Virus record (IMG/VR): IMGVR_UViG_3300035150_000164
Location: 10,766-74,765 of that record
Reading direction: 5' to 3' (one strand)
From: a virus
DNA: 64,000 nt
Part shown: positions 48,206 to 50,433 of the stretch, piece after piece
How positions within the stretch are numbered: position 1 is the first letter of the stretch
Layout of the letters: every line of letters starts with the position of its first letter
Notes under the pieces: model-generated
Databases searched by the model: none
What the model was told of the DNA's origin: nothing
What the model saw: the letters and a program-made list of their open reading frames with translations, nothing else
Position numbers and translations under genes: made by a program

Positions 48206-48577
48206 TCACTTACCGCTCCTGCTAACGCTCTCGCTCCCGCGCCCACTCCCGCTCCTGCTACCGATCCCGCTCCTACGCCCGCTCCTACTACCGCTCCATC
48301 TCCTACTCACACTCCATCTCCAGTTCCCGCTACCGCTCCCGCTCCTGCTAACGCTCCAGCCCCCACTCACGCTCCAGCCCCCACTCACGTTCCTGCTACC
48401 GCTTATGCTCCAGCTCCTGCTCCCGTTCCCACTCCAACTCCAACTCACGATCCTGCTCCCACTTCTGCTCCAGTTCTTGCTCCCGTTCCAACTCCAGATC
48501 CAACTCCCGCTACAACTCCCACTCCAACTCCTGCTCCCGCGACCACTCCTGCACCTACGCCTTGATGAAAATATCAT
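48206..48577 (-). CDS. Arg/Ser/Gly/Trp dipeptide-repeat protein 3
   Basis: ATGA overlap with the previous copy; GGAG SD. Confidence 0.6.
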   Translation of the reverse strand: MIFSSRRRCRSGRGSRSWSGSCSGSWIWSWNGSKNWSRSGSRIVSWSWSGNGSRSWSISGSRNVSGGWSVSGGWSVSRSGSGSGNWRWSVSRRWSGSRSGRRSGIGSRSGSGRGSESVSRSGK

Positions 48578-48813
48578 TTTCCGCTCCCGCTCCTGCTTAT
48601 GCTCACGCTCCCACTCACGCTCCTACGCCCACTCCAACTCCTGCTCCCGCTTATGCTCCAACTCCTGCTCTCGTTCCCACTCCCGCTCCAACTCCCATTC
48701 CAATTCCCGCTTCTGCTCCAACTCCAATTACTGCTACAACTCACGCTCCTGCTTATGCTCCCTCCCACGCTCACGCTCACATTCCAACTCCTGCTCCTTG
48801 ATGAAAATATCAT
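48574..48813 (-). CDS. Arg/Ser dipeptide-repeat protein 2
   Basis: ATGA overlap; GGAG SD. Confidence 0.6.
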   Translation of the reverse strand: MIFSSRSRSWNVSVSVGGSISRSVSCSSNWSWSRSGNWNGSWSGSGNESRSWSISGSRSWSGRRSVSGSVSISRSGSGK

Positions 48814-49073
48814 TTTCCGCTCCCGCTCCTGCTTATGCTCACGCTCCCACTCACGCTCCTACGCCCACTCCAACTCCTGCTCCCGCTTATGCTCCAACTC
48901 CTGCTCTCGTTCCCACTCCCGCTTCTGCTCCAACTCCCATTCCAATTCCCGCTCCTGCTCCAACTCCAATTACTGCTACAACTCACGCTCCTGCTTATGC
49001 TCCCGCTCCTGCTCCTGCTCCCGCTCACGCTCATTCTCACATTCCAACTCCTGCTCCTTGATGAAAATATCAT
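48810..49073 (-). CDS. Arg/Ser dipeptide-repeat protein 1
   Basis: ATG at 49073 overlaps the TGA of the Sm-like gene. Confidence 0.6.
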   Translation of the reverse strand: MIFSSRSRSWNVRMSVSGSRSRSGSISRSVSCSSNWSWSRSGNWNGSWSRSGSGNESRSWSISGSRSWSGRRSVSGSVSISRSGSGK

Positions 49074-49354
49074 GACAACACTATTGATGGGGACTTGCAA
49101 AATGATTCAATAGATTGAATCATAACGTAATGATCACTTGGCAACTGCTGTCTGTCATTCCATGACTTTTCATTCCACGCTCCTGTAGAATAAACAATCC
49201 CTGCATCAGACAACAAAACACACTCATGGTTGACACCCTCAAGAACACCCTCATAATAAAAGTTGGCGCACATCAAAAGAACTCTTGTTCCAATAAAAGA
49301 CAAAAGCCCCTCACCATCAACATTAATCACTTCCACAGTTTTTTTCTTCAACAT
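49070..49354 (-). CDS. Sm/LSm-fold RNA-binding-like protein
   Basis: L..FIG.RV.L.....YYEG.L.GV....VLLSDA fits the Sm1 pattern; YV..QSIESF resembles Sm2; AAGGAG SD. Confidence 0.65.
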   Translation of the reverse strand: MLKKKTVEVINVDGEGLLSFIGTRVLLMCANFYYEGVLEGVNHECVLLSDAGIVYSTGAWNEKSWNDRQQLPSDHYVMIQSIESFCKSPSIVLS

Positions 49355-49700
49355 TTAATACTCCTTTTTTTGAAAGTTGAATAAAAAATCACCACGATCT
49401 TTCACCATCAACTAACATATACATAAAAAATCTCACCAATTTTACAGTTCAACAAATTTCACCATATTTCACTACTAATCAACAAAAGTTGGTAACTGCT
49501 ATAGCCGCTCTTCTTTGAGCTAGAACCGGGTTGGGGCTGTGAACCTCCATCACTATAGCAATGCACAGTCTGACAGTAGAACAAAGCCCGGTCGCCTGCC
49601 TTAGTGCTATTACCAAAAGTACCTGGATTCACTCATATCCGAGTAGGCTCCAGGCAGGCCAATCCTGTGTTCTGGTGTATATCCCCACCAGTAAGGAAGG

Positions 49701-49823
49701 TGGACCGGGCAGGACTTGAACCTGCAAGGGCCGTGGTCTTCGACACCGCCTGCCCAATTGTGGATCGTTTGGCATTTACCACAATATGCCTCTCAATAGC
49801 GTATACCATTCCGCCACCGGTCC
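49701..49823 (-). ncRNA. tRNA-Leu-framed RNA with a 73-nt insert replacing the anticodon/variable arms
   Basis: GGACCGG/CCGGTCC-A acceptor, GCGGAATGGTATACGC D arm, GCAGG-TTCAAGT-CCTGC T arm. Confidence 0.75.
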
Positions 49824-49933
49824 ATTGCGGGCATTCCACCCGCTTGGAGTTTTTTACACGAGGAACTCTTGAAACCGTGAGTGCTTTTAACGTCATGACC
49901 AGGACGTGAGAAGTATTGGCCAATCCTTCTCAG

Positions 49934-50072
49934 TGGACCGGGCAGGACTCGAACCTGCATAAGCTGTCGAACTGCCGTTCAACTTTGCGTGCACTGTACA
50001 TCGTGATGTCGTCACATCTCCCGGAGCAATCACCGGTTATAACGATTGCGTCTACCATTCCGCCACCGGTCC
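49934..50072 (-). ncRNA. Second tRNA-Leu-framed RNA with an unrelated 89-nt insert
   Basis: Same acceptor stem, GCGGAATGGTAGACGC D arm, GCAGG-TTCGAGT-CCTGC T arm. Confidence 0.75.
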
Positions 50073-50104
50073 ATTTGGGCAAGCATAACCTGCTATACCA
50101 ATTA

Positions 50105-50362
50105 TCATTCTTCGTCATATCTCTCTTCAATTCTAAACTCAAATGGATAATCGTCCATCTCAACGTTACCAACAATCATTTCCCTTGAGTAAATACACTC
50201 GTCAAACGATAAATCACTACCTGAAAGTTCTTTCATCGCCAACTCCCAAATTTCATCTTTTGATAATCCCTTCGGTACATTAAAAAGTGTAAGATATTTA
50301 ACCCCATGAATAGGTATTGACACTTCCACAGTCTCTGTTTTTTTCTTTACCATCGTCATCAC
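50105..50362 (-). CDS. Hypothetical protein
   Basis: First gene after the promoter at 50405-50433. Confidence 0.55.
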   Translation of the reverse strand: MMTMVKKKTETVEVSIPIHGVKYLTLFNVPKGLSKDEIWELAMKELSGSDLSFDECIYSREMIVGNVEMDDYPFEFRIEERYDEE

Positions 50363-50404
50363 CTATCTTTTAATACTGGTCTAATCGCCCAATATCTACA
50401 ACAC

Positions 50405-50433
50405 AGGTTACAGCATACTAAGAAGATTGTCAA
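50405..50433 (-). promoter_or_regulatory. Sigma70-type promoter for the ncRNA/Sm/RS unit
   Basis: TTGACA-17-TAACCT with an A-tract upstream. Confidence 0.7.

Follow-up and report, generated by a model that had tools for sequence, protein, structure and literature searches.

A predicted Sm-fold protein of phages recurs with genes for cationic serine-repeat peptides, separately from neighbouring tRNA-shaped RNAs

Rings of Sm, LSm and Hfq proteins are central to RNA handling across all domains of life, and a phage locus in which a gene for an Sm-like protein lies among tRNA-shaped RNAs and genes for repetitive peptides raises the question of which of these parts belong together. The locus occupies positions 48,206 to 50,433, on the minus strand, of a 64,000-nucleotide stretch of viral DNA (hereafter the window; positions 10,766 to 74,765 of IMG/VR record IMGVR_UViG_3300035150_000164). 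A preliminary description, made from the sequence alone, had read it as one ribonucleoprotein unit in which tRNA-framed RNAs, an Sm-fold RNA chaperone and coupled Arg/Ser-rich ("RS") peptides act together. Of that unit, our analysis keeps the Sm-fold protein and its peptide partners, in which Ser alternates with a second residue, X (Ser-X peptides), and releases the tRNA-shaped RNAs, which are unlinked to them in relatives. The best overall explanation, to which we assign a probability of about 0.5, is that an acidic, probably ring-forming Sm-fold protein and one to six cationic Ser-X peptides make up a cassette, and that the RNAs are separate from it. Coordinates are collected in Table 1.

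The 94-amino-acid protein of this locus is predicted to have the Sm fold, which bears out the Sm-like assignment of the preliminary description. An AlphaFold2 model built on a 20-homologue alignment (predicted local distance difference test score, pLDDT, 83.4) has a helix at residues 16-20 and strands at 24-29, 33-41, 45-54, 75-78 and 82-87. When this model was compared with the PDB by Foldseek, the best matches were all Sm, LSm or SmAP proteins (E 3e-4, probability 1.00, template modelling score 0.73-0.82 per target), and all 50 of the top 50 entries returned by VIA-align were of Sm type (Z 9.2-10.3, root-mean-square deviation 1.7-3.7 Å, 63-83 residues aligned). The protein has no match in Pfam, PHROG, PADLOC or NCBIfam and is not matched by the LSM (PF01423), Hfq or Phage_Hfq profiles; a profile search for solved structures found none related to it and matched no solved Sm protein, and a search of 20 family members against Pfam gave a single related match, LSM14, for one member at E 0.18. 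In the ESM Atlas, LSM and Phage_Hfq clusters appear as sub-threshold leads only (0.83 and 0.80), and the protein is placed among unnamed viral clusters of 117-342 members.

Modelling suggests that the protein probably assembles head to tail into a ring. A three-copy model scored 0.54 against 0.00 for the best control, with at least 61% of contacts shared between runs and a partner pLDDT of at least 70. Among proteins with solved structures, 20 of 30 one-chain pairs and 1 of 23 single chains attained that mark, counts that hold only roughly for this model because it was built from a custom alignment with three copies. Strand 5 (residues 82-87) of one copy meets strand 4 (residues 71-78) of its neighbour, head to tail, and this modelled contact is the Sm ring interface. 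Furthermore, three relatives carry two Sm domains in tandem within one chain (P0031, P0036 and P0104; 186-218 amino acids), as would be expected for a ring former.

The partners of this protein are revealed by its relatives. A profile search of 1.84 billion representatives returned 498 clusters at E <=1e-3, of which 319 reached E <=1e-10, and the matches in 185,579 prokaryote genomes numbered two, both in metagenome-assembled genomes. A protein search of the phage collection gave one homologue record, MW202825.1, in which the gene is unannotated, and a DNA search of that collection gave low-complexity matches only. Judging from these searches the family is almost exclusively viral, and its roughly 500 sequence clusters have escaped Pfam and PHROGs. 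A same-strand run of S-[G/W/R] dipeptides lies beside the Sm gene in 31 of 36 viral loci, in 65 of 80 metagenome loci (31 of the 32 that are at least 3 kb long) and in 2 of 2 genome loci, compared with 0 of 13 control phage loci (111 kb covered). Apart from Ser-X genes, no conserved gene was found among the neighbours of the Sm homologues, so the Sm gene and its Ser-X genes stand as a unit. In the usual layout the Ser-X gene starts at the Sm stop codon or a few bases from it, and each single Sm gene is accompanied by one to six peptide gene copies; in the window, all three Ser-X open reading frames (ORFs) start within an ATGA overlap of the preceding stop, just as had been noted before. These results indicate that the Sm gene and the Ser-X genes very probably constitute a mobile two-gene phage cassette whose peptides are translated in this frame, and they uphold the Ser-X ORFs as Sm partners that are conserved, on the same strand and often translationally coupled across relatives. 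We found no description of this gene pair in the literature, and full-text searches for the peptide motifs gave nothing relevant. An Sm-fold family that is almost always paired with fast-evolving Ser-Gly/Trp/Arg microproteins would be a new and widespread piece of phage early-gene biology.

The peptides follow a common plan, in which a short Lys/Arg leader is succeeded by Ser alternating with Gly, Trp or Arg. The 83 unique peptides have a median length of 64 amino acids and a median net charge of +10, and X (n = 1682) is Gly in 36%, Trp in 28% and Arg in 25% of positions. They have no Pfam match or folded domain, and no PADLOC or NCBIfam match. RS domains of SR proteins and the Ser/Arg-rich regions of viral nucleocapsids alternate Ser with Arg, are disordered, associate with nucleic acid and are prone to form condensates. 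The phage peptides share the alternation of Ser with Arg, and to that extent deserve the RS label; however, Arg fills only about a quarter of their X positions, Gly and Trp being commoner, and they have neither an RRM or other folded domain in the chain nor a linked kinase. As far as composition can tell, the condensate role suggested earlier fits them.

Codon usage argues that these arrays are genes. Most loci encode Ser by TCT, TCG or TCA, while the window and loci L006, L007, L031 and L034 use AGC/AGT, and the TCN and AGY families cannot be interconverted without leaving Ser. The leader T-K-R-N-K persists although its codons change synonymously between loci (ACA/ACC/ACT, AAA/AAG, AGA/CGG). 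Because the Ser codons vary between loci and the leader is retained through synonymous changes, the arrays are selected as peptides and not as DNA repeats. The X codons follow a different rule: 85% of them are NGG (n = 1682; GGG, TGG, AGG, CGG), far above background codon usage. At strict X positions 92% of Gly codons are GGG and 97% of Arg codons are AGG/CGG, compared with 17% and 30-38%, respectively, in background genes of the same loci. Repeat number differs between near-identical loci, and related strains show indels within the array, which indicates that repeat turnover is fast. In the window, Tandem Repeats Finder detected a hexamer periodicity in the Ser-X array and a 236-nucleotide duplication (1.9 copies, 96% matches) that makes ORFs 1 and 2 near copies; the count of three peptide ORFs is that of a single assembly, since independent contigs from the likely source sample break within the duplication and the sequencing-run contigs leave parts of the array uncovered.

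Other accounts of the array were considered and rejected. A Shine-Dalgarno sponge, with GGAG every 6 nucleotides, does not suit the relatives with TCA or TCT codons, which lose GGAG and keep the peptide. A programmed frameshift joining the Sm protein and the peptide is unlikely, as each junction has its own ATG and the gaps in many relatives run from 14 to more than 600 nucleotides. Finally, for a diversity-generating retroelement, whose A-to-N changes in AGG would yield Arg, Gly and Trp codons, there is no reverse transcriptase neighbour, and CGG is strongly under-represented. A repeat-coded stretch also occurs in a different gene of a related phage, at L003 2790-2950, where the repeats are of Ala-Ala-x-Gly type and the C-terminal part is normal.

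How might ring and peptides act together? Their charges are complementary: 17 of 20 Sm proteins are acidic, with net charges of -2 to -8 (-4 for the window protein), and the peptides are cationic. We tentatively propose a mechanism in which the acidic ring would associate with the basic Arg/Trp peptides, and ring and peptides would form a multivalent assembly that binds nucleic acid, probably RNA, early in infection. Such an assembly would resemble eukaryotic Sm proteins with their Arg-Gly tails, except that the tail would have a fast-evolving gene of its own. SmD1, SmD3, SmB and LSm4 carry Arg-Gly dipeptide-repeat tails, and the phage system likewise combines a (predicted) Sm-fold ring subunit with a basic low-complexity dipeptide repeat, which in the L037 peptide runs into (Gly-Arg)10. 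It differs in that the repeat is a separate polypeptide with its own start, encoded by a gene that may overlap the Sm gene or lie up to ~2 kb away, in that Ser alternates with Gly/Trp/Arg and one to six copies are present, and in that the core is acidic and without uridine-pocket residues. The cassette would be a suitable natural test case for the way in which low-complexity peptides and a ring scaffold work together in bacteria, where condensate biology is still thin.

Archaeal SmAP and bacterial Hfq share with the phage protein the fold (Z ~10 to SmAP1/SmAP2), a predicted strand 4/strand 5 interface and a similar size. The phage family differs from them in having no LSM, Hfq or Phage_Hfq profile match, no Sm1 Asn and no Sm2 Arg-Gly, in being almost exclusively viral and in possessing its own 20-residue loop between strands 3 and 4, which holds the conserved residues Y55, T57, G58, W60 and D67. 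Literature searches on phage Sm-like proteins and odd phage tRNAs yielded only the T4 GoF paper. According to its abstract, the LSm-like fold of GoF, MotB.1 and Frd.2, small early phage proteins, is known only via structure prediction, and a post-transcriptional role is suspected (PMC12152347). The window protein is similarly a small phage protein recognised as LSm-like through structure prediction, whereas in the GoF family the LSm-like motif is N-terminal and lies inside a larger protein, and the abstract mentions no partner repeat peptides (PMC12152347). No sequence relation between that family and the window protein was detected.

Several observations weigh against the reading of the cassette as a ring-and-peptide assembly. 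The position of the Sm1 Asn is Val, Ala or Cys in 20 of 20 aligned sequences, and the loop before strand 5 is variable (IQS, KQA, RKG and others) and has no conserved Sm2 Arg-Gly, as judged by inspecting the 20-sequence alignment against the textbook Sm1/Sm2 consensus. Moreover, because the protein is acidic, it is doubtful that the ring itself binds RNA. The oligomer prediction that the preliminary description had proposed does dock three copies through strands 4 and 5, but as solved Sm rings exist, the pass of this model may partly be recall. In some relatives the Ser-X genes lie 5' of the Sm gene or 1-2 kb 3' of it, so tight coupling is not universal, and none of 13 longer relatives joins an Sm domain to a Ser-X tail. 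Finally, the NGG bias at X positions is not predicted by a function purely at the peptide level. Since the uridine-pocket residues are not kept and most members are acidic, the protein merits the label of an Sm fold and not that of a demonstrated RNA chaperone: of the earlier "RNA chaperone", the fold stands and the chaperone is weakened.

These observations bear on a first alternative, in which the ring is a chaperone and the peptide its cargo. In an antidote-like arrangement, the acidic ring would restrain an aggregation-prone Arg/Trp peptide until a host target (nucleoid, RNA or membrane) is reached; put more generally, the ring would have no RNA role of its own and would be comparable to an acidic ring chaperone that stores protamine-like peptides. 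The opposite net charges, the position of the Sm gene, which is usually first and often translationally coupled, the conserved aromatic and acidic residues in the strand 3-strand 4 loop and the lack of conservation in the canonical RNA pocket are all consistent with such a role. However, neither the Sm protein nor the peptides match a toxin, antitoxin or defence system in Pfam, PADLOC or NCBIfam, and one to six peptide genes per Sm gene would be odd for a stoichiometric pair. We consider this account unlikely, both as an antidote and as a store.

A second alternative is the integrated ribonucleoprotein of the preliminary description, in which the adjacent tRNA-like RNAs would be chaperoned or packaged by the ring, and the peptides would promote condensation or act as decoys for tRNA-targeting defences. 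Its RNA components deserve attention of their own. RNA 1 and RNA 2 have nearly identical 25-nucleotide ends, which supply an acceptor stem of 7 bp, a D arm of Leu type and a T arm. RNA 1 matches the Rfam tRNA model at 39.3 bits, with a 37-nucleotide insertion in the anticodon loop and a 38-nucleotide variable region; RNA 2 was missed by Rfam and by ARAGORN, even when introns were allowed, and has no canonical anticodon loop. Both are absent from default ARAGORN output, and neither has a canonical anticodon arm (5-bp stem, 7-nucleotide loop) or a length of ~73-93 nucleotides. A tRNA with a canonical intron was rejected as an explanation, because the intron mode of ARAGORN gave inconsistent isotypes and intron positions in relatives and nothing for RNA 2.

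In a pattern scan, eight further viral contigs showed these D and T arms around middles of 65-95 nucleotides. A covariance model of nine elements (R1) scores RNA 1 at 102 bits and RNA 2 at 99 bits. Across the nine elements, 100% of acceptor-stem cells are paired and all seven pairs change on both sides, a covariation score reached by 0 of 500 shuffles; as the search pattern itself prescribed the D and T arms, these lend no independent support. The covarying acceptor stems show that the two tRNA-framed RNAs are genuine, as had been proposed. Their middles cannot be aligned across elements, no conserved protein neighbours were found among seven contigs and the window, and the exact 20-nucleotide 5' half of the window's tRNA frame occurs in no other viral contig. 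In a marine-sediment run, a related contig keeps both flanks of RNA 1 at ~97% identity and has 75 unrelated bases in place of the 88-nucleotide middle (49960-50047); a wetland run shows indels in the RNA 1 middle, and other contigs diverge exactly at both frame boundaries. These run contigs were taken at a minimum likeness of 85 and are thus relatives, not the same strain. The replacement, the indels and the divergence at the frame boundaries make the RNA 1 middle an exchange hot spot, and the tRNA frame seems, from these alignments, to act as a cassette site.

Frames of tRNA-Leu type with swappable non-tRNA middles are a natural counterpart of the laboratory "tRNA scaffold", and may be relevant to the ways in which phages handle tRNA processing or defences that target tRNAs. 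As a lead, T4 "species 1 and 2" are stable RNAs of the tRNA gene cluster that are larger than tRNA and have tRNA-like ends, and tmRNA has a tRNA-like domain; the window RNAs are likewise oversized phage RNAs with tRNA-like ends, but they keep the full Leu-type D and T arms and 7-bp acceptor stem, and their middles are mutually unrelated and exchanged between strains. Phage contigs also encode class II tRNAs (long variable arm) of normal size that share these Leu-type D and T arms and have anticodons CAA, GTT and ACG. Those with GTT (Asn, three contigs) and ACG (Arg) are at L134 6898-6978, L136 4463-4543, L137 12649-12729 and L138 7005-7086; it is unusual for a Leu-type body to carry an anticodon other than Leu. 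At a second locus of the window, the minus strand encodes a tRNA with an 8-nucleotide anticodon loop (52587-52661; ARAGORN four-base anticodon "ccgt", Rfam 40.3 bits), directly followed by a 127-nucleotide RNA (52461-52587) whose fold is cloverleaf-like (z -1.66), with a 7-bp closing stem, D-like and T-like hairpins and an enlarged middle. The pair is preceded by a promoter-like TTGACAA-N16-TATAAA at 52760.

Do these RNAs belong to the Sm/Ser-X cassette? In the window a promoter-like site precedes all the parts, which are on the same strand, and the minus strand has no terminator-like site from 50433 to 48206; a single transcript over this stretch is possible on the sequence, and in this phage lineage the tRNA-shaped RNAs may be transcribed together with the cassette. 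An integrated particle is also favoured by the second window locus, with its odd tRNA and further tRNA-shaped RNA, and by L005, where ordinary clustered tRNA genes surround the cassette. The relatives speak against it. With covariance model R1, no enlarged tRNA-like RNA was found within 2.5-3 kb in any of 118 further Sm loci, and ARAGORN called a tRNA or tmRNA within that distance in only 11 of the 118, the one at L021 being false, inside the peptide repeat. Conversely, an Sm profile had no match in the eight other contigs that carry such RNAs (one 100% and one 86% complete), and blastn of the non-coding stretch against 38 loci returned nothing. The setting of L005 suggests that the juxtaposition in the window reflects an accessory/tRNA region of a large phage and not a dedicated unit. 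The co-occurrence search suggested in the preliminary description, by which its claim of linkage was itself to be judged, thus recovered Sm genes with Ser-X genes and not with enlarged tRNA-like genes: the tRNA-shaped RNAs are not part of the conserved cassette. As the residues of the uridine pocket are also absent, we regard an integrated ribonucleoprotein as distinctly improbable. Separately, the related phage contigs of one group have a tmRNA gene (tag ANDNVAYEDYALAA) ~1.4 kb 3' of the Sm gene (L026 2092-2472, L027 3765-4145, L121, L122 and L129).

A third alternative shifts the function from the peptide to its message. The NGG triplets, one every six bases, would be the working part and the peptide a secondary constraint, with the repeat being wrapped by the ring in the manner of TRAP, which wraps (G/U)AG repeats, or forming two-layer G-quadruplexes, or loading tRNAs that read NGG codons. 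The excess of NGG over background in the same loci supports this view, and its constancy among loci that differ in their Ser codons would accommodate a constraint on RNA or codons. However, the 3-nucleotide spacers always encode Ser despite their differing bases and the leader is conserved as amino acids, which makes selection at the peptide level certain. In addition, the NGG-type codons of Gly, Arg and Trp are one mutation apart, so fast repeat turnover together with selection for a mixture of Gly, Trp and Arg could explain part of the bias. We give an RNA- or codon-level function little chance, although NGG in every second codon does raise the question of a dual function of RNA and peptide. 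A hybrid is conceivable in which the ring works both with the peptides, as stickers-and-spacers condensate drivers, and with NGG-rich mRNA wrapped around it TRAP-like, giving a tunable, fast-evolving RNA-protein granule; that granule would capture host or phage RNAs, here including the neighbouring tRNA-framed RNAs with their strain-exchanged payloads. We rate both the granule and its capture of RNAs as long shots.

The weakest alternative, that the Ser-X frames are not genes and the hexamer array is non-coding repeat DNA or encodes plus-strand Pro/Ala/Thr-rich ORFs, draws on the several frames that are open on both strands (for example plus-strand ORFs of 122 and 79 amino acids), but its probability is close to negligible, because from locus to locus the two other frames and the antisense strand give differing products or stops (TCA-type loci yield antisense TGA stops and TCT-AGG yields TAG in the +2 frame), only the Ser-X frame has the start at the Sm stop and the conserved leader, and the neighbouring genes are all on the minus strand.

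Table 1. Positions in the window of the features of the Sm/Ser-X locus and its surroundings
Feature	Positions	Strand	Remarks
Promoter-like site TTGACA-N17-TAACCT	50405..50433	-	5' of the 85-amino-acid ORF
ORF, 85 amino acids	50105..50362	-	Family unassigned by the libraries searched
tRNA-shaped RNA 1, 139 nucleotides	49934..50072	-	Leu-type acceptor, D and T arms; 89-nucleotide non-tRNA middle
tRNA-shaped RNA 2, 123 nucleotides	49701..49823	-	Ends near-identical to RNA 1; unrelated 73-nucleotide middle
Non-coding spacer	49355..49700	-	No credible ORF; TGGTGA(A/G)A-like repeats just 5' of the Sm gene
Gene for predicted Sm-fold protein, 94 amino acids	49070..49354	-	AlphaFold2, Foldseek, VIA-align
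Ser-X ORF 1, 87 amino acids from ATG	48810..49073	-	ATGA overlap with the Sm stop
Ser-X ORF 2, 79 amino acids	48574..48813	-	Recent duplicate of ORF 1; ATGA overlap
Ser-X ORF 3, 123 amino acids	48206..48577	-	More diverged; ATGA overlap; strict S-[G/W/R] run detected

The source record is a 74.8-kb IMG/VR viral contig with a completeness estimate of 40%. PHROG matches to a tail sheath, portal, prohead protease, major head protein, terminase and UvsX-like recombinase identify a large myovirus, and every gene of the window is on the minus strand. The Sm/Ser-X locus sits amid small accessory genes, between the structural block and the DNA-metabolism block. The promoter proposed at its 5' end holds up in part: its TTGACA is perfect and it is one of 12 recurring sites of an enriched motif, but its -10 (TAACCT) is weak and it is absent from the output of a standard sigma-70 scan. 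Counting both strands, the window holds 12 copies of the motif, TTGACAN15-19TANNNT, where 4.6 would be expected; none of 100 shuffles had as many as 12. On the minus strand, TTGACAA-N16/17-TAnnnT sites are at 41055, 50433, 52760, 56392, 57650, 59257 and 62869, and the -10 TAACCT is common to two of the recurring sites.

The 85-amino-acid ORF downstream of this site has no Pfam, PADLOC or NCBIfam match and one weak PHROG match (E 0.0085), and it is not kept beside Sm homologues. Between it and the Sm gene, ~750 nucleotides of the minus strand (50104-49355) contain no credible ORF. The claim that about 580 nucleotides of this region are structured RNA did not survive beyond the two tRNA-shaped elements, as the remaining 240 nucleotides 3' of RNA 2 (49460-49700) fold no better than shuffles (z -0.46). 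A repeat with a 10-nucleotide period was found at 49448-49472; more broadly, 49385-49480 on the minus strand holds four to five TGGTGA(A/G)A-like words at a 10-nucleotide period, just 5' of the ribosome-binding site of the Sm gene, which could be a protein-binding array or a promoter region. At the other end of the locus, ~700 nucleotides 3' of the cassette, the minus strand encodes a 132-amino-acid protein of the MSMEG_6728 family (47105-47503; NCBIfam E 2.5e-42).

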